NCBI GenBank assembly: GCA_035294905.1
Contig: DATGJX010000159.1
Coordinates: 1-63,371, forward strand
Source of the DNA: Vulcanimicrobiaceae bacterium
GTDB taxonomy: Bacteria > Vulcanimicrobiota > Vulcanimicrobiia > Vulcanimicrobiales > Vulcanimicrobiaceae
Direction: 5' to 3'
Length of the DNA: 63,371 nucleotides
Position numbers and translations under genes: made by a program. The notes under the pieces were generated by a model. That model was given only the letters and a program-made list of their open reading frames with translations. It was not told the origin of the DNA and made no database searches. Shown in pieces: positions 4,742-63,300 of the stretch; position 1 is the stretch's first letter, and each line of letters begins with the position of its first letter.

Positions 4742-4810
4742 GTAATCGCTATTGGCACGCAACGCCTAAGGCGCGCCGTGCAGCGCGGAGCGCGGATACG
4801 CCTGTTAAAT

Positions 4811-4843
4811 GGAAACGGCCCGCCTCCCCTGCGGGCCGTTTCC
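4811..4843 (-). terminator. perfect 13-bp hairpin, likely terminator for minus-strand transcripts (small ORF or hpnK-hpnI)
   Basis: ggaaacggcccgc / ctcccct / gcgggccgtttcc. Lies 34 nt past the stop of the minus-strand small ORF. Weak U-tract. Confidence 0.45.
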
Positions 4844-7322: not shown

Positions 7323-8372
7323 GTGCGCCGGGCGAAGGCGCGTGCCGCCGCGGGCAACGCGGACGTCGAGCCGCTCTTGCTGAGCCGTCATCGTTCGCGT
7401 ATCTCGGAGTACATGCGCGAGCGTGCGCTGCCGTTCTCCTGGCTGTCCGGCAAGATGGTCGCCTACCACATGGGCTGGGCGGATGAAGCAGGACGTCCGC
7501 ACGCGGTCAAAACCGGCAAGCTGATCCGCCCGAGCCTCTGCCTGTGGGCATGCTCGGCGATTGGGTCGGACATTGCCGCGGCGCTGCCGGCGGCTGCTGC
7601 GATTGAATGGTTTCACAACTTCACACTAGTCCATGACGACATTCAGGACGACGATCGCCGCCGCCACGGCCGCGAAACGGTCTGGTCCCTGTGGGGCATT
7701 CCGCAGGGCATCAACGCGGGCGATGCGATGCAGGCGCTCGCGTTTCTCTCGATGGCGCGCGATGGAGAGCATCCCGATCGCGCGATTCGCGCGATTGCGG
7801 CGATCGCTTCCGCCGGTCTTACGGTGATTGAAGGGCAGTGCCTCGATCTCGAACTCGAAGGACAAGTCGATACGACGCTGCGCGCGTATTTGCGCATGGT
7901 TGCGGCAAAAACCGGCGCGCTGCTCGGCGCCAGCGTCGAAGCCGGCGCACTTCTGGCCGGAGCGGATGAGACAACGGGGGCGCAGTTCCGTCGCGCCGGG
8001 CGATTGCTCGGCACGGCATTTCAGATTCGCGACGATTGGCTCGGAATGTACGGCGATCCGTCCGTTACCGGAAAATCGAGCAGCGGCGACGCGAGCCGTT
8101 ACAAGATGACGTTCCCCGTGGTCGCGGGATTGCGGGCGATGTCTACGCTCCAGCGCCGGCGTCTGCGCGAGATATTCCGCGCCCGGCACGAGGATCCGGA
8201 GCCCAAGCTTCGTGCTCTGCTCGATGAAGTGGGATGCAACCAGATCACGCGCGAAGCTGCTCAACGGTATGCCGAAAAGGCGGTGAACGTCATCGCGCGC
8301 ACCGGCGTCGATGCCGATGCGCTCGAAGCGTTCCAGGAAGTGGCCTATTATGTTGCGACACGTTCTCGCTGA
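7323..8372 (+). CDS. polyprenyl (farnesyl/geranylgeranyl) diphosphate synthase
   Basis: First Asp-rich motif LVHDDIQDDD and second Asp-rich motif QIRDDWLG. GKLIRPSL. Confidence 0.85.
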   Translation: MRRAKARAAAGNADVEPLLLSRHRSRISEYMRERALPFSWLSGKMVAYHMGWADEAGRPHAVKTGKLIRPSLCLWACSAIGSDIAAALPAAAAIEWFHNFTLVHDDIQDDDRRRHGRETVWSLWGIPQGINAGDAMQALAFLSMARDGEHPDRAIRAIAAIASAGLTVIEGQCLDLELEGQVDTTLRAYLRMVAAKTGALLGASVEAGALLAGADETTGAQFRRAGRLLGTAFQIRDDWLGMYGDPSVTGKSSSGDASRYKMTFPVVAGLRAMSTLQRRRLREIFRARHEDPEPKLRALLDEVGCNQITREAAQRYAEKAVNVIARTGVDADALEAFQEVAYYVATRSR

Positions 8373-9541
8373 CTGGTCGCTGCGCAAGGGGGCCGAAGGC
8401 CGGGGGCCCCACGCCCCTTCGACAAGCTCAGGAGTGTGGGGGGCGTGCGGCGCGGAGCGCGGATACGCCTTTTCAAAAGAGGTGGCCTATTACGTCGCAA
8501 CTCGATCGCGATAGCGGGACGTCCTCGCGCAAGTCCGATCACATTCGTATCAACGTAGAACGTGACGTCGCAAGCAAAGGGGTCTCGAGCGGCTTCGAAG
8601 CCTACCGGCTGATCAATTGCGCGTTGCCCGAGATCGATCTTGCCGACGTGGACACGTCGTGCGCGCTGTTCGGACGAGCGCTGCGGGCACCGCTGCTCAT
8701 ATCGTGCATGACGGGCGGCACGCCGGAAGCGCGCGCGATCAATCGTGTGCTCGCGCGCGTCGCGCAAGAGCACGGCCTGGCAATGGGGCTGGGTTCGGCG
8801 CGGGCTTTACTCGAGGCACCGCAGTTGCTGGACACGTTTGCCGTGCGCGACGTAGCGCCGGATATCGCATTGCTTGCAAATCTCGGAGCCGTTCAGCTCA
8901 ACAAGGGTTACGGCGTCGAAGAGTGCCGCCGTCTGGTCGACATGCTGCAAGCGGATGCGCTGGTGTTGCATTTGAACGCGGTGCAGGAAGCCGTGCAGCC
9001 TGAAGGCGACACGTGCTTTCGCGATCTGATTCGAAAGATCGGCGTCGTATGTAAGAATCTCGGAGCGCCCGTGGTCGTCAAAGAAGTGGGTTGGGGTATT
9101 GCGCCGCACGAGGTGCGCGCGCTTTTCGACGTAGGCGCGGCGGCGATCGATCTTGCCGGCGCAGGCGGCACGTCGTGGAGCGAAGTGGAGCGCTACCGCA
9201 TCGCGGAGCCATGGCGTGCGAACGTCGCCGCCGCATTCGCGGGCTGGGGTATTCCGACGGCGGAATGCGTGCGCGGTGCAACGCAGGTTCATCCGCGCGG
9301 GTTCATCATCGCAAGTGGTGGAATCGCGGGAGGTATGGACGTGGTGAAGGCGCTCGCGCTCGGTGCCGATTTCGCCGGCATTGCGGGTCCGTTTTTGCGC
9401 GCGGCCGCACAAGGGTACGAAGCGGCATCGACGCTTGCACGCGAAATAGTCGAAGTGCTGCGCATAGCGATGTTCGCGCTCGGCGAACCGACGCTTGCGA
9501 GGCTGCATTCCACAAAGCGGATCGTCCGTGAACGAGATTGA
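8234..9541 (+). CDS. fni: type 2 isopentenyl-diphosphate delta-isomerase (FMN-dependent); true start uncertain
   Basis: RKSDHIRIN (from 8528), LISCMTGG, VVKEVGWGI, GAGGTSWSEVE. The only canonical in-frame start is the ATG at 8234, which would add about 95 Arg-rich residues read through the synthase tail and the repeat. Confidence 0.8.
   Translation: MQPDHARSCSTVCRKGGERHRAHRRRCRCARSVPGSGLLCCDTFSLTGRCARGPKAGGPTPLRQAQECGGRAARSADTPFQKRWPITSQLDRDSGTSSRKSDHIRINVERDVASKGVSSGFEAYRLINCALPEIDLADVDTSCALFGRALRAPLLISCMTGGTPEARAINRVLARVAQEHGLAMGLGSARALLEAPQLLDTFAVRDVAPDIALLANLGAVQLNKGYGVEECRRLVDMLQADALVLHLNAVQEAVQPEGDTCFRDLIRKIGVVCKNLGAPVVVKEVGWGIAPHEVRALFDVGAAAIDLAGAGGTSWSEVERYRIAEPWRANVAAAFAGWGIPTAECVRGATQVHPRGFIIASGGIAGGMDVVKALALGADFAGIAGPFLRAAAQGYEAASTLAREIVEVLRIAMFALGEPTLARLHSTKRIVRERD
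8373..8478. repeat. 106-nt insertion built from dispersed repeat boxes
   Basis: 8414-8433 ccccttcgacaagctcagga is the reverse complement of the GTCATCCTGAG..GTCGAAGGGG box. 8450-8469 gcgcggagcgcggatacgcc is identical to 4783-4802. GC-rich nested hairpins at 8386-8420. Confidence 0.7.
8479..8514 (+). pseudogene. relic copy of the polyprenyl synthase 3' end (EVAYYVATRSR*)
   Basis: Encodes the same 11 residues plus stop as 8337-8372. 9 of 36 nt differ, all at silent third positions. Confidence 0.7.
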
Positions 9542-10373: not shown

Positions 10374-11259
10374 CGCGGTTCGCTACATGCGCCGGCCGCA
10401 AAGCGTCGAACAAGAAGCAGAGCGGTTCTGCGGGCAGATGGCGCGCCGCGAAGCGAAGAACTTCTATTGGGGTTTCATCTCGCTGCCGCACGACCAGCGC
10501 ATGGCAATTTACGCCCTCTACGACTTCGCGCGCCAAGTGGACGATGAAGTTGACGGCGCTCCGCAGCCCGATCTCATTCCGGAGCGTTTGGCCGCGCAGC
10601 GCGATCGCGTGCGCCGCACGTTTCTGCGCGATCCCGAAGTATCGGACGACGATCCGGTCATGCAGGTTCTTTCGAAGGCGGTGCAGCGCTACGCAATTCC
10701 GGAAAGCGAGTTGCAGGAACTCATCGACGGCGTCGAACGCGACTGTACGCAAACGCGCTACCGCACCTGGGAAGACCTGCGCGCGTATTGCAGGCTCGTC
10801 GCTTCCGTCGTGGGACGAATGTGCGTGCGAATCTTCGGGTTCAACGGCGACGAGGCGCTGTTACGCGCGGACGACCTCGGCCTCGCGCTGCAACTGACGA
10901 ATATCTTGCGCGACGTGCGCGAGGATGCGGAGATGGGCCGCATCTACTTGCCGCAAGAGGATTTGGATCGCTTCGGAATTACGGAAGAGGCGATGCTGAG
11001 CGTGCAGCCCGGCGCGGGATGGGATGCGCTCGTCGCTTTCGAATCGCAGCGGGCGCGGCAGCTTTTCAAGGCCGGCTATGAAGTGTTGCGGTACATTCCG
11101 CGGCGCCCGGCCGCATGCGTCCAGACGATGGCGGGCATTTACGAACGCTTGCTGCAAAAAATCGAACGCGATCCGCAGTTGCCGCTGCGCGAACGTGCCG
11201 CGCTCTCAAAAGGCGAGAAGCTCCAGGTAGTACTCGGTTCGTGGCTGTTCCCTGTGTAG
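10357..11259 (+). CDS. hpnD: presqualene diphosphate synthase HpnD
   Basis: NFYWGFISLPHDQRMAIYALYDFARQVDDEVD and NILRDVREDAEMGRIYLPQEDL. Confidence 0.85.
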   Translation: MLKPLDAVRYMRRPQSVEQEAERFCGQMARREAKNFYWGFISLPHDQRMAIYALYDFARQVDDEVDGAPQPDLIPERLAAQRDRVRRTFLRDPEVSDDDPVMQVLSKAVQRYAIPESELQELIDGVERDCTQTRYRTWEDLRAYCRLVASVVGRMCVRIFGFNGDEALLRADDLGLALQLTNILRDVREDAEMGRIYLPQEDLDRFGITEEAMLSVQPGAGWDALVAFESQRARQLFKAGYEVLRYIPRRPAACVQTMAGIYERLLQKIERDPQLPLRERAALSKGEKLQVVLGSWLFPV

Positions 11260-15531: not shown

Positions 15532-16533
15532 GTGGCTGACAAAGTATTCCTTACTGGAAGCAGTGGGTTCGTCGGCGGACATGTTCTCCGCGAACTATTA
15601 GCAGCGGGATATGAAGTAAAAGCGCTAGTGCGTCCGCGTCATCCTGAGGTATCGAAGGACCCCGAGCCTGTCGAGGGGCGCGTCGAGTTTCTCGAAGGCG
15701 ATCTTGAAAATGTCGGCGCGTGGGCGAGGGCGTTGGATGGATGCCGCTATGTCGTGCATTGTGCGGCGCTCTACTCGTTTGCGCCGCGCGATCGTGGCGC
15801 GGTGCATCGCGTGAACGTCATCGGTACGTCGGGATTGGTCGAAGCGGCGCGCGTTGCCGGGGTCGAGCGGGTTGTGCTCACGTCGAGCTCGGCGACGCTT
15901 GGTGCGGGGCGTGATGGGCGGCCGCGAACGGAAGAAGACTACGCTCCGGAAGGGCGGAGCGGCGGGTATCATCATTCAAAACTGGATCAGGAGCGTGCTG
16001 CGTTTGCTGGACGCGTGCCCGTCGTTGCATTGCTGCCAACGGCGCCCGTTGGTCCCGGTGATTGGAAGCCGACGCCTACGGGGCAGATGATTCTGGATTT
16101 TGCCCGCGGCAAGATGTTCGCGAAGCCGCCGCGCGGCGGTTTGAACCTCGTGCCGGTCGAGGACGTCGCGCGCGCGCACGTTATTGCGCTGCAGCAGGGT
16201 ATTTCGGGTGAACGCTATATTCTCGGCGGCGAGAACTTGTTGCTCGATGACGTGTGGCAACTGCTGTCCGATGTAACCGGGAAGCCGATGCCGCGCTGGC
16301 GCGTTCCCGATGCGTTGGCGCTTTCCATTGCGTATGCCGACGAAGCGCGGTGCCGCGTTCAACCGGGCGCGCATCCGTTCGTTCCGGTCGAAGGCGTACG
16401 CATGTCACGCGAACGGATGTTTGCCGACAGTTCGAAAGCGTCGCGCGAATTGGATTTCCATCCAGGCCGCGTGCGTGACGCCCTCGAACGCGCCGTACGC
16501 TGGTATCGCGAGCGCGGGTACGTATCATCGTAA
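15532..16533 (+). CDS. hpnA: hopanoid-associated NAD-dependent sugar epimerase/dehydratase HpnA
   Basis: FLTGSSGFVGGHV Rossmann motif, YHHSK catalytic YxxxK, cluster position. Confidence 0.8.
   Translation: MADKVFLTGSSGFVGGHVLRELLAAGYEVKALVRPRHPEVSKDPEPVEGRVEFLEGDLENVGAWARALDGCRYVVHCAALYSFAPRDRGAVHRVNVIGTSGLVEAARVAGVERVVLTSSSATLGAGRDGRPRTEEDYAPEGRSGGYHHSKLDQERAAFAGRVPVVALLPTAPVGPGDWKPTPTGQMILDFARGKMFAKPPRGGLNLVPVEDVARAHVIALQQGISGERYILGGENLLLDDVWQLLSDVTGKPMPRWRVPDALALSIAYADEARCRVQPGAHPFVPVEGVRMSRERMFADSSKASRELDFHPGRVRDALERAVRWYRERGYVSS
15638..15678 (+). repeat. dispersed repeat box embedded in frame in hpnA
   Basis: gtcatcctgaggtatcgaaggaccccgagc (15638-15667) is identical over 30 nt to intergenic 47722-47751. 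The following ctgtcgagggg is also related. Confidence 0.85.
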
Positions 16534-36142: not shown

Positions 36143-38287
36143 ATGCGAAACGCCGTAGGTGTGGTGTCGGCGGCGTGCGCCGTCGTATTGGCGGCGTCAT
36201 GCAGCGGACAGCATTCAAATGTTCTCGCGCCGATCGCGCAACGAAGAGCAACTTCCTCTTCGGTTCTTTCCATCGTGCAAACCGCGACGATCACCGGCTC
36301 GACCGGAGCGACGCTGCACTCACCGCCTACGAACGGTGATCTACTTATCGCCATCGCTTTCAACGGCATATCGACGATCGGCTGCGCAAGCGGCTGGACC
36401 AGCATCAGGCACGTGACCGCGAACTACGACGACGCGCAAAGTTGCTATCGCATCGCAAGCGGCGACACGGCCACGGAAACGCCGTTCTCCGGCACCGCGG
36501 GGAATATCGCGGGCGAGATTTGGGAGATCGCCGGAGAGCAAACGACTGGATTCATCGATGCCGAAACCGGCGCCGAGGCCGGTCCGCGCACCGTAACGCT
36601 CACGTTTTCACCGTCGCATAGCGGCGACCTCATCGTCGGCGCGAGCGCAATGAACACGATGCTGACCGGTGTAACGCCCACCGGCTTTACGGTTGATTCG
36701 AGTTCCTCACCGGCCGGATCGACGGGCTTCTCGGATCTTTCCGCCCACCAAAATAGTGCGCAAGCCGGCACCCAATCCGTGACGTGGACGTACAACTCAA
36801 CGACCGATACGCATCCCGTGACGGCGGACATGATTGCGATAGCCGGAACAGGTGCCACCGCGACACCGTCGCCAAGTCCGACGCCGTCGCCTACGCCGGC
36901 GCCCACACCGACGCCGACGCCCACGCCCGGTAGCGCCGTGAACTGGCCGACGATGGGTTACGACGTGAAACGCAGCGGCTACAATCCGAGCGAACACACG
37001 TTGGGCACGTCGAACGTGAGCGGCATACACAACATTTGGAGCACGTCGATCGGCGGACAGATCGGCGAGCCGATATACGCGTCGAACGTCGTTATCAAAA
37101 GCGTCAAAACGAACGTGCTGTACGTGTCCGACGGCGGCGGTACAGCGTGGGCGATTAACGCAGACACAGGCGCCGTGCTTTGGACGCACCAGATGGGCAC
37201 GTCTTCGTACATGTGCGGTACCGGAACGTACACGTTCGGAGCGAACGGTACGCCGGTGTTCGACCGAACGACGAACCGCGTCTATTTCTCCGACGGTGCC
37301 GCCAACGTTCACGCCTTCAACATGTCCACGGGCAAAGAAGTCGCCGGGTGGCCCGTGAACATCGCTACGCCGGCGAATCACAACTTCATCTACTCGGCGC
37401 TGACGTACAATCACGAAAATCACACGCTGTACGCCGAAACGTCGTCTACGTGCGATATTTCACCGTGGTACGGGCGCATTGCCGCCATCAATACGACGAC
37501 GGCCGCGATTACGAACACGTTTTATCCGGCGCAAGGTGTAAGCGGCGGCGGCATTTGGGGATTCGGGGGCGCGTCAATCGACCCATCGACGAACGACGTC
37601 TACATCGCAACCGGAAACAGTGACACGAGCAATGGCGGAAGTCAGTCAGCCGGTTACTCCGAGCAGGTCGTCTCGCTGTCGCCGGATCTGAGCACCGTTC
37701 TCGGAAACTACTACGCGCAGCTGCCGCCGGGCCCGGACAGCGATTTCGGCGCGACGCCGCTGCTGTTCAAACCGCCCGGGTGTCCGCTCCTTGCCGCGGC
37801 GGTCAACAAGTCTGGGCTGTTCGTCCTGTACAATGCCGGCAACATCAGCGCCGGTCCGCTGCAAACGATCGACATGTCCATCAGCAGCGACAACGGCGAC
37901 TTCGTCGGCGTTCCTGCGTACGATCCCGTGACGAACTACGTCTATGTCGGGCTGCCTTCCACGTTCGGCATTTATAATCCGGGCATGGGCGCGTTCGGCG
38001 TACAGTCGAACTGCACGCTCAATCCGACGCCGGTTTGGAACGCCGCCTTCGGGGCGGACGGAGCCGTGCTGGACGACGATACGCTGCGTTCGCCGATCTC
38101 CATAGCCAACGGTGTCGTGTACGTGAGCGACTACGACACGGGGGTCGCGTACGCGTTCAATGCCGCGACGGGCTCGCAGCTCTGGACACACACGCTAAGC
38201 GGAAAAGGCGTCGTCGGACCGATCGTCGCGAACGGACACCTGTATACGAGCGACATCACCGGAAAAATCCAAGCCTGGAGTCCATAA
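36143..38287 (+). CDS. lipoprotein: N-terminal ~230-aa beta-rich domain, Pro/Thr linker, PQQ-like beta-propeller
   Basis: Lipobox LAASC. PSPSPTPSPTPAPTPTPTPTPG linker (36861-36930). C-terminal ~450 aa with repeated DG..YA.NA.TG..LW propeller blades. Confidence 0.75.
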   Translation: MRNAVGVVSAACAVVLAASCSGQHSNVLAPIAQRRATSSSVLSIVQTATITGSTGATLHSPPTNGDLLIAIAFNGISTIGCASGWTSIRHVTANYDDAQSCYRIASGDTATETPFSGTAGNIAGEIWEIAGEQTTGFIDAETGAEAGPRTVTLTFSPSHSGDLIVGASAMNTMLTGVTPTGFTVDSSSSPAGSTGFSDLSAHQNSAQAGTQSVTWTYNSTTDTHPVTADMIAIAGTGATATPSPSPTPSPTPAPTPTPTPTPGSAVNWPTMGYDVKRSGYNPSEHTLGTSNVSGIHNIWSTSIGGQIGEPIYASNVVIKSVKTNVLYVSDGGGTAWAINADTGAVLWTHQMGTSSYMCGTGTYTFGANGTPVFDRTTNRVYFSDGAANVHAFNMSTGKEVAGWPVNIATPANHNFIYSALTYNHENHTLYAETSSTCDISPWYGRIAAINTTTAAITNTFYPAQGVSGGGIWGFGGASIDPSTNDVYIATGNSDTSNGGSQSAGYSEQVVSLSPDLSTVLGNYYAQLPPGPDSDFGATPLLFKPPGCPLLAAAVNKSGLFVLYNAGNISAGPLQTIDMSISSDNGDFVGVPAYDPVTNYVYVGLPSTFGIYNPGMGAFGVQSNCTLNPTPVWNAAFGADGAVLDDDTLRSPISIANGVVYVSDYDTGVAYAFNAATGSQLWTHTLSGKGVVGPIVANGHLYTSDITGKIQAWSP

Positions 38288-39789
38288 TGAAGCGGATGCG
38301 TAGAGCCGATGTGGTTTTTGTGGTGTGTGCGATCGCCTTGGCGACCGGGTGCGGCGCACGTCAATCGGGTGCCCTTGCTCCGATCGCGCAGCGCGAGACG
38401 ACGTCAAACGTAACGGCCTCGGCCAACGCGTCGGCGCCGAGCTGGCTCACGATGGGCTACGACGAGCAGCGCACCGGCTATAATCCGACGGAGCACACGC
38501 TCGGCGTTTCAAACGTCGGCGGAATACATGCGCTGTGGACGACGTCGATCGGCGGCGAGATCGGCGAACCGGTATACGTCTCTTCGGTCAGCGTCAAAAA
38601 CGTGAAAACCAGCGTACTGTACGCGACGAGCGGCAGCGGCCAAGCCGTTGCAATCAACGCGGGCACCGGTGCGATACTCTGGAGGCACCAGATGAGCACC
38701 GTTTCGTATAAGTGCGGCACCGGCACCTACAGTTTCGGAGCAAACGGCACACCGGTGATCGACCGTTCCACGAATCGCATCTACGCGACCGACGGTGCGG
38801 CGAACGTTCACGCACTGAACATGTCGACCGGCGCCGAAATTGCCGGCTGGCCGGTGAATATCGCCACGCCCGCAAATCACAACTTCATCTATTCGGCCCT
38901 GACGTACAATCATGCGAATCACACACTGTACGCAGAAACGTCGTCGACGTGTGAGATCTCGCCGTGGTATGGGCGCATCACGGCAATCGACCCGGCGACG
39001 CCGGCGATTACGAATACCTTCTTCGTGGCGCAGGGAGCAAGCGGCGGCGGCATCTGGGGGTTCGGCGGCGCGTCCGTCGACCCGTCGACGAACGACGTGT
39101 ACATCGCCACGGGGAACGGCGACACGCACAACGGCGGCAGTCAGACGGCGGGTTATTCCGAGCAGGTCGTCGCGCTATCGCCGGATCTCGGCACGGTTCT
39201 CGGACATTATTACGCAAAACTTCCGCCCGGCCATGACTCCGATTTCGGTGCGACGCCGTTACTGTTTCAGCCGCCCGGGTGCCCGCTGCTCGCCGCCGCA
39301 GTCAATAAGACCGGCCTGTTCGTCTTGTACAAAGCGAGCGATATTAGCGCAGGTCCGGTGCAGACAATCGATATGTCGATCAACAGCGACAACGGCGACT
39401 TCATCGGAAATCCGTCGTACGATCCCCTCACGAACTTCGTCTACATCGGGCTTCCCGCGACATTCGGCATCTACAAGCCGGGCATGGGCGCGTTCAGCGT
39501 CGGCTCGAATTGCACGCTCAACCCGACGCCCGTTTGGAACGCCGTTTTCGGAGCCGACGGAGCCAAACTCACCGGTGACGACACGTTTCGTTCGCCGATT
39601 TCGATTGCGAACGGCGTCGCGTACGTCAGCGATTACGACACGGGCGTCGCTTACGCGTTCAACGCGTCGACCGGTGCCGAACTCTGGAGTCACACGCTGA
39701 GCGGCAAGGGCGTCGTTGGGCCGATCGTGATAAGCGGGCGCTTGTACACGAGCGACATCACCGGAAAGATCACCGCCTGGTCGCCGTGA
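38287..39789 (+). CDS. paralogous PQQ-like beta-propeller lipoprotein lacking the extra N-terminal domain
   Basis: Lipobox LATGC. Its ATG overlaps the upstream TAA (TAATG). By eye, roughly three quarters of residues are identical to the C-terminal ~450 aa of the upstream gene. Confidence 0.75.
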   Translation: MKRMRRADVVFVVCAIALATGCGARQSGALAPIAQRETTSNVTASANASAPSWLTMGYDEQRTGYNPTEHTLGVSNVGGIHALWTTSIGGEIGEPVYVSSVSVKNVKTSVLYATSGSGQAVAINAGTGAILWRHQMSTVSYKCGTGTYSFGANGTPVIDRSTNRIYATDGAANVHALNMSTGAEIAGWPVNIATPANHNFIYSALTYNHANHTLYAETSSTCEISPWYGRITAIDPATPAITNTFFVAQGASGGGIWGFGGASVDPSTNDVYIATGNGDTHNGGSQTAGYSEQVVALSPDLGTVLGHYYAKLPPGHDSDFGATPLLFQPPGCPLLAAAVNKTGLFVLYKASDISAGPVQTIDMSINSDNGDFIGNPSYDPLTNFVYIGLPATFGIYKPGMGAFSVGSNCTLNPTPVWNAVFGADGAKLTGDDTFRSPISIANGVAYVSDYDTGVAYAFNASTGAELWSHTLSGKGVVGPIVISGRLYTSDITGKITAWSP

Positions 39790-41007: not shown

Positions 41008-41081
41008 CGGGGCGTGGCTCAGCTTGGTAGAGCGCTTCGTTCGGGACGAAGAGGTCGCTGGTTCAAATCCAGTCGCCCCGA
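41008..41081 (+). tRNA. tRNA-Pro (anticodon CGG)
   Basis: Hand-folded cloverleaf: acceptor cggggcg/cgccccg, D arm gctc/gagc, anticodon stem cttcg/cgaag with loop ttCGGga, T arm gctgg-ttcaaat-ccagt. No encoded CCA. Confidence 0.9.
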
Positions 41082-41114: not shown

Positions 41115-41220
41115 ACCCCGCTCCGTTTAACCGGCACTCCGGCGCAAGCGCCTGCGCGCCCCCCGTACGCAGAGCGCACGGGTTTCCCAAAAATACAAAA
41201 GGGCATTTGCACTAAACAAA

Positions 41221-42566: not shown

Positions 42567-44564
42567 ATGACCACGGACGATGTCACCCTGAGGAATCGAA
42601 GGGCGCTCGCTCAGACGCTCAGCCAAGTCCCGGATTCACCCGGCGTCTATATGATGCTGGACAAAAACGGCGACGTGCTCTACATCGGAAAAGCGGTTTC
42701 CCTGCGAAACCGCGTGCGCTCGTATTTCCAGCAGAGCGCGGATCACCATATCCGCACGCAGGCGATGGTCGAGCGGGTGGTCGACGTGCGCACGATCGTC
42801 GTCACGAACGAAGTCGAGGCGCTCATCCTCGAAGCCAACCTCATCAAACGCTATCAGCCGCCGTTCAACGTGCGACTGCGCGACGACAAGCGTTATCCGT
42901 ATCTCAAAGTGACGAACGAACCGTTCCCCCGCGTCGTGTTCACGCGCGTGGTCAAGGACGACGGCGCGCGCTATTTCGGCCCGTACACCAACGCATCGGC
43001 GCTGCGCGAACTCATCGACTTGGTGCGGCTGGTCTTCCCGCTGCGCACGTGTCCGGAGCCGATAGACGGCCGGCGCCGCCGCCCGTGCCTGCAGTACCAT
43101 ATCAAGCGGTGCATGGCGCCGTGCGTGGGATACCAAACGCAAGAAGACTACGACCGGATGATTGAGGAAGTCGTGCTGTTCCTCGAAGGCAAGCAAGATT
43201 CGCTCCTCGCGCGTCTGCAGGGTGAGATGGTCCAGTCCGCCGAGACGTACAATTTCGAAACCGCGGCGCGAATTCGCGATCGCATCGTGCACGTGCGGCG
43301 CGTAACCGAAAATCAAAAGGTCGTCTGGCGTTCGCGTTTGGACATGGACCTGATTGCCGCCGCGCGCTCGCAAGGACAAGCGTGCATGCAAGTCTTCATG
43401 GTGCGCAGCGGAAAACTGATCGGGCAGGAGCACTTCATTCTGGAGGGCGTGTACGAGCAGAGCGACGCGGAACTCTTCAGCGAATTCGTCAAGCAGTTTT
43501 ATACGGCGCGAACCGCGGCGGCACCGGAGACGCCCGGTGTGTCGCCGCTCGCGCATCTGCGAATCGCGCGGGACAATCAGGTTCCCGTTCCCGAGAAGCA
43601 ACGCCGTTCCCGCGGAAGCGCAAGCGCCATTCCAAAGGAAGTGCTGGTGCAGGCGATGCCCGAGGACACGAGCGTCATCGAGAGCTGGCTGACCGAAATC
43701 AAAGGTGTGCGCGTGCGCATGCTCGTGCCGCAGCGCGGCGATCGCGCAGAGTATATGCGCATGGTGCAGAAGAATGCCGAGCAGAATCTCAAAGCGTTCT
43801 TGGCGCACCAGGAAGTGCAGGAAACTGCGCAAGCGCGATCGCTCGCGGAACTGGCCGACGCGCTCGAATTGCCCGAGCTTCCGCATCGCATCGAGTGCTA
43901 CGACATCTCGAATATTCAAGGAACCAATTCGGTCAGCTCGATGGTCGTATTCGTCGAAGGACGCGCGAAGAAGAGCGACTATCGCAAGTTCAAAATTCAG
44001 TACGAGCGGGGCCCGAACGACTTCGCGATGATGCAGGAGACGCTGCGCCGTCGACTTCGGTATTTACGCGCGCGCACCGACAACGAAGTGACCACCGAAC
44101 AGCAGCAATTGGCCAAGAAAGAAAAATTCAACAAAAAGCCGGATCTGCTGCTCATCGACGGCGGCAAAGGGCAGCTCAACGCCGTCGTAGAGGTGCTGGA
44201 AGAGCTCGACATGACGGGCATCCCCGTTGCGGGCCTTGCGAAAGAGCACGAGTGGCTCTATCTGCCCGGGCAGTCCGAGCCGATCGTACTGCCGCCCAAC
44301 TCCGCGGCGTTGCACCTGGTCATGCGGATCCGCGACGAAGCCCACCGTTTCGCCATTACCTACCACCGGCAGCGGCGCGCCAAGGCGATGACCCATTCGG
44401 CACTGGACGCGCTTGCAGGGGTCGGCCCCGTCCGCAAGAAGCGCCTGCTTACCGCGTTCGGTTCGCTGGCCGCCATCAAGCGTGCCGGCGTCGACGAAAT
44501 CGCGGCAGTCAAAGGGATGACACCGGCTTTGGCCGCCAAGGTCAAAGCCGCATTAGGAGAGTGA
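42567..44564 (+). CDS. uvrC: excinuclease ABC subunit C
   Basis: GIY-YIG (GVYMMLDKNGDVLYIGKA), UVR domain, RNase H-like endonuclease domain and C-terminal HhH. Confidence 0.92.
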   Translation: MTTDDVTLRNRRALAQTLSQVPDSPGVYMMLDKNGDVLYIGKAVSLRNRVRSYFQQSADHHIRTQAMVERVVDVRTIVVTNEVEALILEANLIKRYQPPFNVRLRDDKRYPYLKVTNEPFPRVVFTRVVKDDGARYFGPYTNASALRELIDLVRLVFPLRTCPEPIDGRRRRPCLQYHIKRCMAPCVGYQTQEDYDRMIEEVVLFLEGKQDSLLARLQGEMVQSAETYNFETAARIRDRIVHVRRVTENQKVVWRSRLDMDLIAAARSQGQACMQVFMVRSGKLIGQEHFILEGVYEQSDAELFSEFVKQFYTARTAAAPETPGVSPLAHLRIARDNQVPVPEKQRRSRGSASAIPKEVLVQAMPEDTSVIESWLTEIKGVRVRMLVPQRGDRAEYMRMVQKNAEQNLKAFLAHQEVQETAQARSLAELADALELPELPHRIECYDISNIQGTNSVSSMVVFVEGRAKKSDYRKFKIQYERGPNDFAMMQETLRRRLRYLRARTDNEVTTEQQQLAKKEKFNKKPDLLLIDGGKGQLNAVVEVLEELDMTGIPVAGLAKEHEWLYLPGQSEPIVLPPNSAALHLVMRIRDEAHRFAITYHRQRRAKAMTHSALDALAGVGPVRKKRLLTAFGSLAAIKRAGVDEIAAVKGMTPALAAKVKAALGE

Positions 44565-47676: not shown

Positions 47677-47765
47677 TTGTCATCCAAGCCCTGTGCTTTT
47701 GTCATCCTGAGCCCATGCTTTGTCATCCTGAGGTATCGAAGGACCCCGAGCTCGGTCGAGGGGGG
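47677..47765 (+). repeat. three head-to-tail ~22-nt TTGTCATCC(T/A)(G/A)AGCCC..GCTT units, the last extending into the full repeat box
   Basis: Units start at 47677, 47699 and 47720. 47722-47751 is identical to 15638-15667. Confidence 0.8.
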
Positions 47766-48187
47766 CAAGCCATGCAACCAAGCCTTGCGCCTATGTGTTA
47801 TTATTAGCGACGTCAATCGCGGGGCTGAAATAGGTTCGACGGGAAGGTCCGCGGTCAACGTAAGCAGGCGGAGTTGCGAGCACTCCTAAAACGATCGCAA
47901 GCGTTATACACGCGAACACTGAATACGCACTGGCTGCTTAATCTAAGCTAGCCACCGGCGGTGAAGAGTCGGCCCGAACCACTTCGCCTTCCGGTCATGA
48001 ACTCGGGCTGGCACGCGCGGCCGACGTGACGCGCGTGCAAGATCAAGCGTCTGCTGCGAACGATAAGCCCGGCTTCGGGGCGTGCGTTCGAGTAAGTCAA
48101 ATTCGAAGCTGAGCCTGGAGAAAGCGTTGGTCCGCCTTTTCGGACTCGGGGGGCAGTACCCCGACAGCTCCACCAATTTCGTGCTGC

Positions 48188-60338: not shown

Positions 60339-63300
60339 CTAGCGAATGAGTGGTTTCAAGGGCGCAATCGTGTTCGTCATAAACTGCCGGTACTCGCGCA
60401 TCGCGGCAGCGTAACGCGCATCGAACGCTTGCGCGAATCGCAGCGTCTCCGCAGTCGGCGGAGTCGGCGAGAAACGCAAACCCGCGGGCAGGTCTTCACG
60501 GAGCGACCCCGCTTCGAGCGCGAAATCTTCTCCGTTGCGGTAGTTTGCAGTGAATGCGGCAAAGACGTTTGCCCGCTCGCGTTCTGCCGCCGCAATCCGC
60601 GTTTGAAGTGCGGCGTTGCTCACTGACGACGCCAGCGCTTTCGCGAGTGTACGTTGCAGCGCGTCGAGATTGTTGAGAACTGTATCGATACTCGACGTAA
60701 TACCGACGTATTTCTCATTGAAGCGATATGCTTGCTCGTATTCGGTTTGAGTCCACGGCGCGAGCGGATCCGTTTTCACGACGAGGTGTTGCCTCGCGGT
60801 ATGGCCGCCGGTTGTGAGTGCAAGTGTATACGTCCCGGGCGGAACGGGCGGCCCCGAACGCACGCGGAACGGCGTTGCTGCACCGTTCCATTGCTCGGCC
60901 GGCGTCGCATTCATGTCCCAGACGAAGCGGTTGAGTCCCGCTTTGTTCGGAATTTCCTTACCGGAAATCGTTCGCAGCAGGCGTCCGGACCCGTCGTAGA
61001 TGCGCGCGAGAGGTGCGGAATTTGATGCGGATGATTGATAGAACGAAATGAGCGCTCCGGTGGGTGGATTTTGACCGGAGAACCGGCCGTACAAGCCCTG
61101 CTGATCCGAATGCGAGAACCACCGGTAGGCGGGGCGCGGCGCAAACAGCATGAAGCCGCGCTGTTGCGCTTGCGTGAGTTGTTCGAGTGGTGTAATGTCG
61201 TCGAGAATCCACACGCCGCGGCCATGCGTTGCGGCAACGAGATCGCGATCGGCGGGCGCAATGCGCAGATCGCGGAAACTGACCACCGAGATGTTATTGC
61301 GAAACGGTTTCCACTGTTTGCCGCCGTCGAACGTCACGTACAATCCGCGATCCGTACCGGCAAACACGAGGTGGGGATTCACGATGTCGGGACGCACGGT
61401 CCGCACGGAGTCATCGGAAGGCAAACCGTTCACGATCTTGTGCCACGTCTTGCCGTAATCCGCGGTAACGAAGAGATACGGAGCGTCGTCTCCCGAGCGA
61501 TGCCGATCGATTGCTGCGTAGGCAGTTCCGGCAGCGAGCGGCGAAGGCGCCACCGTTTCCACGCGTCCGAAGGAAAGTACGCCGGGCGGCGTCACGTTGC
61601 TCCAATGTTTTCCGTAATCGCGCGAGAGTTGTACCAACCCATCGTCGGTGCCGACCCACATCTCACCCTTCGCGATCGGCGAACCTTCGATGTCCAAAAT
61701 CGTATCCGAGTATTCGGTGCCGAAGACGTCTTTTGTGATAGGGCCGCCGGACGGCGCTTGATGCGCCTTCACGTTCAGCGTCAAGTCAGGACTGATCGGC
61801 GCCCAATGCTCGCCGCGATCCGTACTTTGAAAAACGACGTCGCCGCCGTACCACACGACATTCGGATTCCACGGCGCGAACGCAATCGGCGAATCCCAAT
61901 TGAAGCGATACAGCGCCAGGCGCGTGTCGAAACGCTGTGCGGACGTCGCTTCGTACGGAAAGATTGGACGCATCTCTTCGTTCCGGCGATCGTAGCGCGT
62001 CAGCCAGCCGTCTTCGGAATCCGCAAAAATGTAGCGCGGGTTCGACGGATCCGGAACGGACCACATTCCGTCGCCTCCGACCGTCACGTACCAGTCGCGT
62101 CCCGTGATACCATCGCTCGACCGTGAATTCGAAGGTCCGCAGTATGCCTGGTTGTCCTGCAACGCCGCGCACACCGTATACGGATTCTCCGTTGAAATAC
62201 CGACGTGATAGACCTGCTCTATCGGCAGATTCCGCGAGAACCAAAAACTCGCGCCTCGATCGAGCGAGAGCGCGAAGCCGCCGTCGTGTCCGACGATCAG
62301 CCGTTTGCCGTCGTTGGGATCTATCCAGATAGCATGCGTGTCGGCGTGCACTTCGTTGCCGAAGCGTTTGAACGTCTTGCCGCCGTCGGTGCTGAGCGCG
62401 AGATCCATGGACAGGGTATAGACGCGATTCTGATCTTCCGGATCGACGGCGAGATGCGAGAAGTAGAAGGGCCGCTGGTTGATGAGCGTGCCCGTGAACA
62501 TGCGGGACCAATGCGCGCCTGCGTCGTCCGAACGCCACAACACGCCTTGCCGCGATTGGATAAGCGCATACACGCGGTTCGGATTACTCGGCGCAATCGC
62601 AAGGCCGATCCGTCCGGTGATTCCGCTGGGCAATCCATTGCCTTGCAAACGCGTCCACGTGCGTCCGCCGTCCACCGATTTATAGAGGCCTCCGTTCGGC
62701 CCCCCGCTCGAAAAGGACCACGGCACGCGGCGGAATTCCCACATGCCCGTGTAGAGAACGTTCGGATCTTTCGGATCCATCGCGAGATCGCAGGCGCCGC
62801 TGTCCGAAGCGAGATAAAGCGTCTTCTTCCACGTCGCGCCGCCGTCGAAGGTCACGTAGATCCCGCGCTCGTTGCTATCGCGGAACACGCTGCCGAGCGC
62901 GGCAACGACGATGTGCTTGGAATCGGTGGGATCGATCGCTATTCCTGCAATATGCCGCGTTTGCTGCAATCCCATCATCCGCCACGTTTTGCCGCCGTCC
63001 AGGCTCTGATAGATGCCGTCGCCGGCGATGACGTCGTTGCGCGGATTCGACTCGCCCGTGCCGACCCACACGTTGTTCTCGTTTTGCGGATCGATGGCAA
63101 TCGCGCCGATGGACGCAACCGGTTCCTTGTCGAACACCGGCGTCCAGGTTTGCCCGCTGTTCTCGGATTTCCAAACGCCCGCGCCGGCAGTCCCGATGTA
63201 ATACAAGAACGGATCTTGCGGCGTGCCTGCAACCGCGGGGATGCGTCCGCCGGCGGTCGCGGGACCGATGGAGCGCCACTCCATCGACGAGTAGGGTGCT

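Follow-up and report, generated by a model that had tools for sequence, protein, structure and literature searches.

Two copies of a synthase gene tail flank a dispersed repeat at the start of fni in a Vulcanimicrobiaceae genome

How can a short sequence that ends one gene and starts the next come to be present twice, with a repeat in between? The question is raised by a 63,371-nt stretch of DNA from a Vulcanimicrobiaceae bacterium (assembly GCA_035294905.1, contig DATGJX010000159.1; hereafter the window), in which the gene of a polyprenyl diphosphate synthase is followed by fni, the gene of type 2 isopentenyl-diphosphate isomerase (IDI-2). The 3′ end of the synthase gene occurs here as an upstream copy (T1) and a downstream copy (T2), which are separated by a repeat element (E). 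In the explanation favored here, whose chances are put at about even, a foreign tail end and E recombined in together, as one patch, upstream of the native T2, and the synthase now ends in that patch. The foreign part would be recognizable by its likeness to a clade of relatives termed class II (lineages L009, L010, L011, L037, L039, and L055), in which the tail reads GTT GCR ACR CGA TCT CGC TGA. The features of the junction are as follows.

7323-8372, + strand: polyprenyl diphosphate synthase gene of the geranylgeranyl or farnesyl diphosphate (GGPP/FPP) type; open reading frame (ORF) with matches to PF00348 and to an NCBIfam polyprenyl synthase family
8337-8372, + strand: T1, the tail now used by the synthase (EVAYYVATRSR, TGA); first 14 nt native-looking, last 22 nt class-II-like
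8373-8478, + strand: E, a GC-rich dispersed repeat of 106 nt between T1 and T2
8479-8514, + strand: T2, the native overlap of synthase tail and fni start; 36 of 36 nt identical to the junctions of L001 and L003
8479-8484, + strand: GAGGTG, putative Shine-Dalgarno sequence of fni, read from the sequence
8489-8494, + strand: ATT ACG, candidate non-canonical starts of fni (ATT at 8489, ACG at 8492)
8492-9541, + strand: fni (TIGR02151), counted from ACG

The two tails of the synthase gene

As an earlier note on this DNA had seen, T1 (GAAGTGGCCTATTATGTTGCGACACGTTCTCGCTGA) and T2 (GAGGTGGCCTATTACGTCGCAACTCGATCGCGATAG) both encode EVAYYVATRSR followed by a stop codon. Their starts lie 142 nt apart, which shifts the frame of T2 by one relative to that of T1; the working 3′ end of the synthase gene and its stop codon are inside T1. 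The copies mismatch at 10 of 36 nt (28% divergence) without a single amino-acid change. Eight mismatches occupy third positions of sense codons, and the remaining two fall within the stop (TGA vs TAG), one of them at its second position. The silence of the differences reported in the note therefore stands, but its count of nine third-position changes does not. The probability that all eight sense-codon differences should hit third positions by chance is (1/3)^8, or about 1.5e-4.

The mismatches are clustered: one of codons 1-4 differs, as do all of the last seven codons together with the stop (Fisher p=0.024). The longest core shared by both copies comprises only 11 nt (GTGGCCTATTA), and an ATG in T1 (8350-8352) is matched by ACG in T2 (8492-8494). 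In a gapped alignment, the duplicated stretch may extend about 20 nt past the tail, to GCGCAAG (8392 in the upstream and 8537 in the downstream copy), an extension that is marginal when taken alone (312 of 5000 shuffles reach an equal score). At the mismatched sites, T2 carries G, C, C, A, T, A, G, A, A, and G, and T1 carries A, T, T, G, A, T, T, C, G, and A. A diversity-generating retroelement was rejected, since the mismatches are not adenine-specific, there is no reverse transcriptase, and the neighbors are hopanoid genes. A paralogous synthase or fni as donor in a gene conversion was rejected as well, as none is present in the window.

The native junction in related lineages

The relatives of the window are metagenome-assembled genomes (MAGs) of Candidatus Eremiobacterota (Baltobacteraceae, Vulcanimicrobiota) from mixed soil communities; synthase orthologs in MAGs of Baltobacteraceae show 70-92% identity. 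The synthase-fni junction was read in about 35 lineages. All but one lack a spacer and end the synthase gene with a T2-type sequence, and fni begins inside the synthase tail with an overlap of 23 nt. Besides the two identical junctions, those of L004 and L045 match T2 at 35 of 36 nt, and a BLAST alignment of the T2 region with L045/L046 gives 96.9% identity over 64 nt. E is absent from the closest relatives (89-92% identical), including the nearest one, L045, whose synthase is 92% identical.

Because the synthase gene ends with this T2-type sequence in about 30 relatives without E, T2 is the resident, ancestral junction and T1 the deviating copy. The comparison establishes T2 as the native junction of this lineage, which is at odds with its description in the earlier note as a tail brought in with fni. 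T2 is no longer part of the synthase and appears to serve now solely as the translation initiation region of fni. The comparison of both copies with close and distant lineages that the note had suggested gave a divided answer: T2 goes with the window's own close relatives, and the last 22 nt of T1 resemble class II. None of ten further contigs of relatives that were inspected for the arrangement tail-E-tail contained it, and a search for Fni N-termini reading through E gave five matches elsewhere, of which none covered E.

Origin of the upstream tail

T1 differs by 4 nt from the tail of L011, a class II lineage whose tail is the nearest to it and also its best BLAST match, and by 10-12 nt from the tails of all members of its own clade. 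When the same codons were recoded synonymously at random, 0.7-1.8% of the simulated sequences came as near to some class II tail (p=0.007-0.018). Over the last 150 nt of the synthase gene, the sites at which the clades differ (1, class I, the clade of the window; 2, class II) read 1,1,1,1,1,1 and then, in the last 22 nt, 2,x,2,2,2,2; none of the seven sense codons in this final stretch agrees with T2, nor does the stop. Two codons of T1, TCT (2 of 85 serine codons) and ACA (5 of 67 threonine codons), are rare in the codon usage of the window; the rare codons of T1 are those forced by dual coding in class II. The states TAT and CGT are private to T1 and occur in no sampled lineage. Taken together, T1 bears the signature of a short mosaic tract, with its left boundary probably within the 14 nt GARGTGGCCTATTA common to all lineages.

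The rates of change point in the same direction. T1 is changed at 8 of 11 silent sites (p=0.0016 at an assumed per-lineage rate of 0.26; p=0.05 if the whole pairwise divergence of 44% is assumed) and at 7 of 7 in its 3′ part, and a recent local duplication is disfavored because these changes exceed one lineage's share of the 44%. T2 shows no change at the seven third positions of fni that were freed from the synthase frame (8/11 vs 0/7, Fisher p=0.004). Under an old local duplication, the 0/7 would have a p of 0.017 to 0.0002 at 44-70% divergence, so that the unchanged freed sites disfavor this variant, too. It is therefore unlikely that T1 is a drifted local duplicate. The class II states of T1 and the unchanged sites of T2 bear out the argument of the earlier note that neutral decay after a local duplication is not what made the copies diverge. 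Relaxation of codon usage was rejected as a cause, since most changes in T1 lead to rare, A- or T-ending codons in a genome with 71% G+C at third codon positions.

Congruence of the flanking genes

The earlier note had further proposed that the fni-hpnCDE-shc block had arrived as a whole or that the synthase had been replaced, and that incongruent phylogenies would reveal it. In neighbor-joining trees of the synthase and of Fni, the window groups with L045-L047 and then with L001 (the synthase tree includes all three of L045-L047, the Fni tree only L047). In the HpnK tree, it clusters with L046 and L001, and the HpnD tree, which is without L045-L047 and L001, places it inside the same class I clade. 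Third positions of the synthase gene diverge from those of L045 by 44% overall and by 0.31-0.62 per 29-codon bin, with no block of excess divergence, and the last 150 nt of the gene are native up to codon 4 of T1.

Because the trees of the synthase, Fni, HpnD, and HpnK give the window the same relatives, neither the fni-hpnCDE-shc block nor the synthase appears to have been replaced. An exchange on that scale, with T2 as the tail of the displaced synthase, would explain two tails that differ at silent sites only, and it is extremely unlikely nonetheless: the trees are congruent on both flanks, the binned divergence is even, class I states continue right up to T1, and T2 with the 28 nt downstream of it is 97% identical to the closest relatives. 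What remains of the note's homeologous recombination scar is the kind of event, which is still the best reading; its scale (about 130 nt) and its direction, with T2 as the native copy, have to be revised.

The start codon of fni

Fni scores 384 bits against TIGR02151 (cut-off 281) over profile positions 2-336, including the N-terminal RKxxH motif, and IDI-2 structures in PDB match it at E=7e-68, with 2zru aligned from NRKVEH. The motif belongs to the core of the solved IDI-2 structures and of the profile. In the window, RKSDHIRIN starts at 8528, and the in-frame canonical starts are ATG 8234, located 98 codons upstream of RKxxH, and then TTG 8624; the earlier statement that the fni frame contains no ATG, GTG, or TTG between 8237 and 8623 is accurate. 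The 32 codons from 8528 to 8623 differ from those of L046 at 12 third positions and at no first or second position, and from those of L045 at 15 third positions, one first, and one second position. These codons, which lie upstream of TTG 8624, are evidently under purifying selection.

The coding-type evolution of this segment and the position of RKxxH in the core of the family both imply that Fni is translated from a start upstream of 8528. ATG 8234 was rejected as the start because relatives do not conserve it and the frame change produced it; a leader of about 95 residues, as the earlier note had considered, would be an accident of that change with no counterpart in relatives. A fusion of synthase and Fni by a +1 frameshift was also rejected, since it is impossible in the window and in L005, where T2 is not reached in the synthase frame.

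The predicted start of fni must be non-canonical, either ATT 8489 or ACG 8492. GAGGTG precedes ATT by 4 nt and ACG by 7 nt. GAGGT is kept in the junctions of nearly all relatives, with a variable sixth base (GAGGTG, GAGGTA, GAGGTT, or GAGGTC), and is replaced by GAAGT in four of them. At the start itself, most relatives read ATT ACG TCG, as does T2, and those of class II read ACG TTG; L006, L015, L052, and L060 have ATG where others carry ACG. L016 offers only ACG (ACT ACG), and L056 offers only ATT (ATT ACA), which is located behind an in-frame stop; therefore, either near-cognate codon may serve.

At least nine lineages lack any canonical start, with no ATG, GTG, or TTG from the last in-frame stop to RKxxH (L001, L003, L005, L016, L045, L046, L047, L053, and L056); in L016, L045-L047, L053, and L056, that stop is located three codons before the ACG position. 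Since these relatives share the deficit, the insertion did not cause it, and the missing canonical start is an ancestral trait of the family rather than insertion damage, contrary to the earlier note. Relatives with the intact 23-nt overlap read the same ATT ACG. Public gene calls at this junction cut Fni to 291-319 residues, with loss of RKxxH; the protein is shortened by 30-60 residues as a consequence of the predicted family-wide non-AUG start in an uncultured phylum. For hopanoid and isoprenoid clusters of Eremiobacterota, gene annotation should admit ATT or ACG starts at this junction.

The repeat element and its relatives

The spacer between the tails is composed of dispersed repeat boxes, as the earlier note had recognized; its segment 8444-8478 is found again at 4777-4811. 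The parts of E and its second copy in the window are as follows.

8391-8410: boxA of E
8406-8417 and 8440-8451: GC-rich hairpin of E
8415-8432: nested fragment of a second repeat family in reverse orientation, resembling repeats at 15638, 42582, and 47722
8444-8478: boxB and terminus of E, recurring at 4777-4811
4777-4811, + strand: second, partial copy of E (boxB only), intergenic (nhmmer E=2e-6)

The left part of E (8373-8392) may be a decayed duplicate of the 5′ region of fni. E exists in multiple dispersed copies: apart from that at 4777-4811, L005 and L007 have two each, with full homologs in both lineages, and L017 has a variant. A repeat search for terminal inverted repeats of E returned internal hairpins only (8406-8417/8440-8451). 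A short target duplication of fixed length was not seen at E either, as the flanking repeat of T1 and T2 is at least 36 nt long and 28% diverged; the copies at 4777 and in L017 are without a flanking duplication. E, which is non-coding over its 106 nt and open in all three frames, contains no att sites and encodes no site-specific recombinase, and no promoter-like or intrinsic-terminator site was found in it. Rfam returned only two chance-level eukaryotic matches for positions 8250-8600 (E about 2.4), and only a transfer-messenger RNA (tmRNA) and one tRNA for the whole window. RNA structure at E, T2, and the ancestral junction is nothing unusual (z-scores of -0.4 to +0.8 vs shuffled sequences), and scans of viral contigs with boxB and with the 3′ part of T1 gave no match.

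Further repeats were observed elsewhere in the window. The partial boxB copy at 4777-4811 adjoins a hairpin downstream of a gene end, and a weak boxB-like match (41123-41190, - strand; nhmmer E=0.06) is located beside a tRNA gene (41008-41081). At 15638-15678, inside the ORF 15532-16533, the repeat GTCATCCTGAGGTATCGAAGGACCCCGAGCCTGTCGAGGGG is in frame within a gene of an HpnA-like epimerase and codes for RHPEVSKDPEPVEG in a loop; the same loop has a much longer, HGAQP-type insert in L060 and no insert in L014. More copies of the GTCAYCCTGAGG repeat family are found at 42582-42611 and 47700-47760, the copy at 47722 just upstream of the tmRNA gene (47821-48175).

Tails and repeats at other loci

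A second locus of this kind is present in L005, a class I lineage that is not a sister to the window. Its junction reads tail-E-tail-E-tail, the boxes of its E are 95-100% identical to those of the window, and the tails are spaced by 136 nt, a distance that is 1 mod 3 like the 142 nt of the window. The two 136-nt units of L005 differ at three sites, which are all confined to the 5′ part of the tail, whereas the remaining 100 nt or so are identical (clustering p=0.008-0.024). The 3′ end of the outer tail (ACG CGC GCG AGA TAA, encoding TRAR and a stop) is 2 nt from the tails of L054/L056 and 5 nt from the inner tail of L005 itself. This pattern fits units with a foreign tail end that would have recombined in the conserved core. 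E-family repeats occur also at the hpnE-shc junction, in L007 and, as a variant, in L017.

Several changes at gene ends were seen besides. In L056 (10940-11000; also in L057-L059), a 15-nt in-frame insertion in the N-terminus of Fni is located exactly at the synthase stop; its layout (CGATAA, 12 nt, CGATAG) could be the scar of an earlier duplication or excision at the junction. In L007 (10900-11135), the 3′ end of hpnE and an E-family repeat are tandemly duplicated with a period of about 113 nt, and the hpnE ORF extends into the first of the repeats, whose own TAA terminates it. In L012 (around 10959-11120), the C-terminal tail of HpnE carries a tandem duplication of seven residues (KQQSMPV KQQSMPA) that is not present in the close relative L002.

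In the window, the synthase is preceded by HpnI and HpnK (divergent) and followed by Fni, HpnC, HpnD, and HpnE; the genes in the rest of the operon also overlap, and the G+C content of the window is 61.5%. Two segments (36940-39780 and 61309-62870), given as about 1.5 kb apart and 72-79% identical, suggest tandem paralogs, and a 44-nt motif is repeated every 750-770 nt near the end of the window.

Proposed mechanism and alternative explanations

The ancestral state would have been the 23-nt overlap, with the last 36 nt of the synthase gene holding the Shine-Dalgarno sequence, the weak start, and the first codons of fni. In the window, this overlap would have been pulled apart: T2, unchanged, would only start fni; T1 would only end the synthase; and E would lie between them. 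The segment that begins near codon 5 of T1 and ends with E would have been imported by recombination from a relative that already possessed the arrangement tail-E-tail and a class II tail, with crossovers inside the ultraconserved 14-17 nt at the beginning of the tail. The differences between the tails would be silent because T1 was shaped as a real synthase C-terminus and T2 is the ancestral sequence. The route of recombination and the donor are the parts of this explanation that we infer.

Several observations weigh against it. None of the approximately 35 lineages sampled has E behind a class II tail, as a donor genome would, and tail-E-tail is present at only two loci in this sample. The 20 nt past the T1 stop fit the window's own post-stop sequence about as well as that of other lineages, and in class II the linkers past the stop are longer by about 10 nt. 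The crossovers needed are confined to 11-17 nt of identity, and E of the window is closer to E of L005 (class I) than to that of L007. The statistics on T1 concern 11 codons and were framed post hoc, the junction 8373-8478 was read from an assembled contig, and the L005 locus is on a contig of 3.7x coverage.

The most serious competitor, possible but rather unlikely, is a purely local event, in which E inserted into the overlap and duplicated about 36-56 nt, for instance through a template switch at microhomologies or a transposition whose target duplication was unusually long. T1 would then have drifted silently, with its protein held by purifying selection on the synthase C-terminus and T2 held by the initiation signals of fni. 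This mechanism is the simplest, and purifying selection alone accounts for silent-only differences. The duplication seems to continue beyond the stop for about 20 nt that match the 5′ sequence of fni in the window itself, T1 of L005 shares an unusual AGR arginine codon and a TAA stop with its own inner tail (a point that also counts against an imported tail), and E-family repeats at hpnE-shc show that another junction of the cluster received them, too. However, a local event would be younger than the split from the E-less relatives of 89-92% identity, yet seven codons and the stop are all changed, which has a p of 8e-5 to 3e-3 at realistic rates and of 0.08 even at saturation. The free sites of T2 are unchanged (0/7), the changes in T1 go to rare codons and class II states, and E has no terminal inverted repeats.

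A local duplication followed by selection is very unlikely. Here, T1 would have been selected for a Shine-Dalgarno sequence and an ATG that open a hypothetical relay ORF of 54 codons (8350-8514, + strand; from the ATG in T1 through E to the TAG of T2), which would carry ribosomes across E to the stop of T2, where they would terminate as in the ancestral overlap and begin anew at the weak start of fni. ATG in T1 faces ACG in T2 in the window as well as in L005, and in both the spacing of 1 mod 3 lets the start frame of T1 reach the stop of T2; the 5′ part of T1 is conserved and the 3′ part is not (p=0.024), and termination-reinitiation coupling is described for overlapping pairs (PMC10666635). 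Against this, the openness of E in all three frames makes an open relay frame uninformative, the agreement in mod 3 has a chance of 1 in 9 at best, and TAC to TAT is the sole silent option at its codon. Moreover, the Shine-Dalgarno sequence of T1 is weakened (GAAG vs GAGG), the peptides of the window and L005 are unrelated, and the class II states go unexplained. An assembly artifact, with two co-occurring lineages joined at the conserved tail by a chimeric or mis-polished contig, has a similarly small probability. The relatives are all MAGs from mixed communities, and the L005 contig is thinly covered; but the exact identity of 11 nt between T1 and T2 is too short for an assembler to switch, class I upstream sequence and the class-II-like part of T1 are at most 25 nt apart, the private states of T1 occur in no sampled lineage, and a similar architecture arose independently in L005.

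The import of a foreign tail end with E also has a bolder form, which is unlikely as it stands. The 142-nt unit (3′ part of the tail, E, 5′ part of the tail) may be an exchangeable cassette that moves between lineages of Baltobacteraceae by recombination at the core of 14-17 nt, brings its own replacement tail, and forms a relay ORF that keeps fni coupled. If so, the cassette could occupy a junction of overlapping genes with both of them left functional and could stack in tandem as in L005; its length of 1 mod 3 and its ATG would give the relay ORF, restoring a stop followed by a restart and coupling the non-AUG start of fni to the synthase.

Comparison with known systems

The locus combines known kinds of change, namely repeat insertion, gene-tail replacement, and non-AUG starts. 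Among the latter, infC of Escherichia coli starts at AUU. Initiation in E. coli reaches 1-2% of the AUG level at AUU and 0.1-1% at ACG (bioRxiv 10.1101/063800). The start of fni resembles infC-type starts in that a near-cognate codon behind a good Shine-Dalgarno sequence appears to be conserved across the family; it differs in being without a known autoregulatory logic and in having two adjacent near-cognates (ATT ACG), of which lineages keep one or the other.

In synthetic-genome refactoring, overlaps are duplicated and synonymously recoded. The window likewise has two copies of the overlap, one per gene, with silent differences only, but here the duplication arose in nature, the copies have a repeat element between them, and the one that is recoded fits the natural sequence of another lineage. 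The locus would thus be a natural case of un-overlapping two genes by doubling the stretch that they share. Co-directional overlapping genes can be coupled by termination-reinitiation (PMC10666635). The ancestral 23-nt overlap, with a Shine-Dalgarno sequence and a start inside the upstream gene, is of this type; in the window, the overlap appears resolved by duplication, the stop-adjacent restart geometry is lost (the synthase stop at 8370-8372 lies 116-119 nt before ATT/ACG), and coupling would need the hypothetical relay ORF.

With repeats of the REP/REPIN, MITE, and RPE types, E shares its short, GC-rich, hairpin-forming, and non-coding nature, its multiple copies, and its location at gene junctions, where such repeats are sometimes read through by ORFs. 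By contrast, E is without terminal inverted repeats or a short target duplication of fixed length and is linked to no transposase within the 63-kb window.

The nearest known analog appears to be the prophage e14 in icd of E. coli, along with similar integrative elements that bring their target gene a new 3′ end. The prophage supplies a replacement 3′ end, leaves the native fragment icdC at its far side with mostly synonymous differences, and on excision yields a mosaic icd gene (PMC13626634). The window agrees in having the working 3′ end on the side of the element (T1) and the displaced native tail beyond it (T2); in both cases, the differences would be mostly synonymous because both tails are functional in different lineages. 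By contrast, e14 comprises 15 kb with an integrase and att sites, whereas E comprises 106 nt, is gene-free, and belongs to a dispersed repeat family; and the displaced T2 is no pseudogene remnant but would still be essential as the start region of fni. As with e14, a spare gene tail that accompanies the insertion may be what enables even a tiny non-coding repeat to occupy a dual-coding site.

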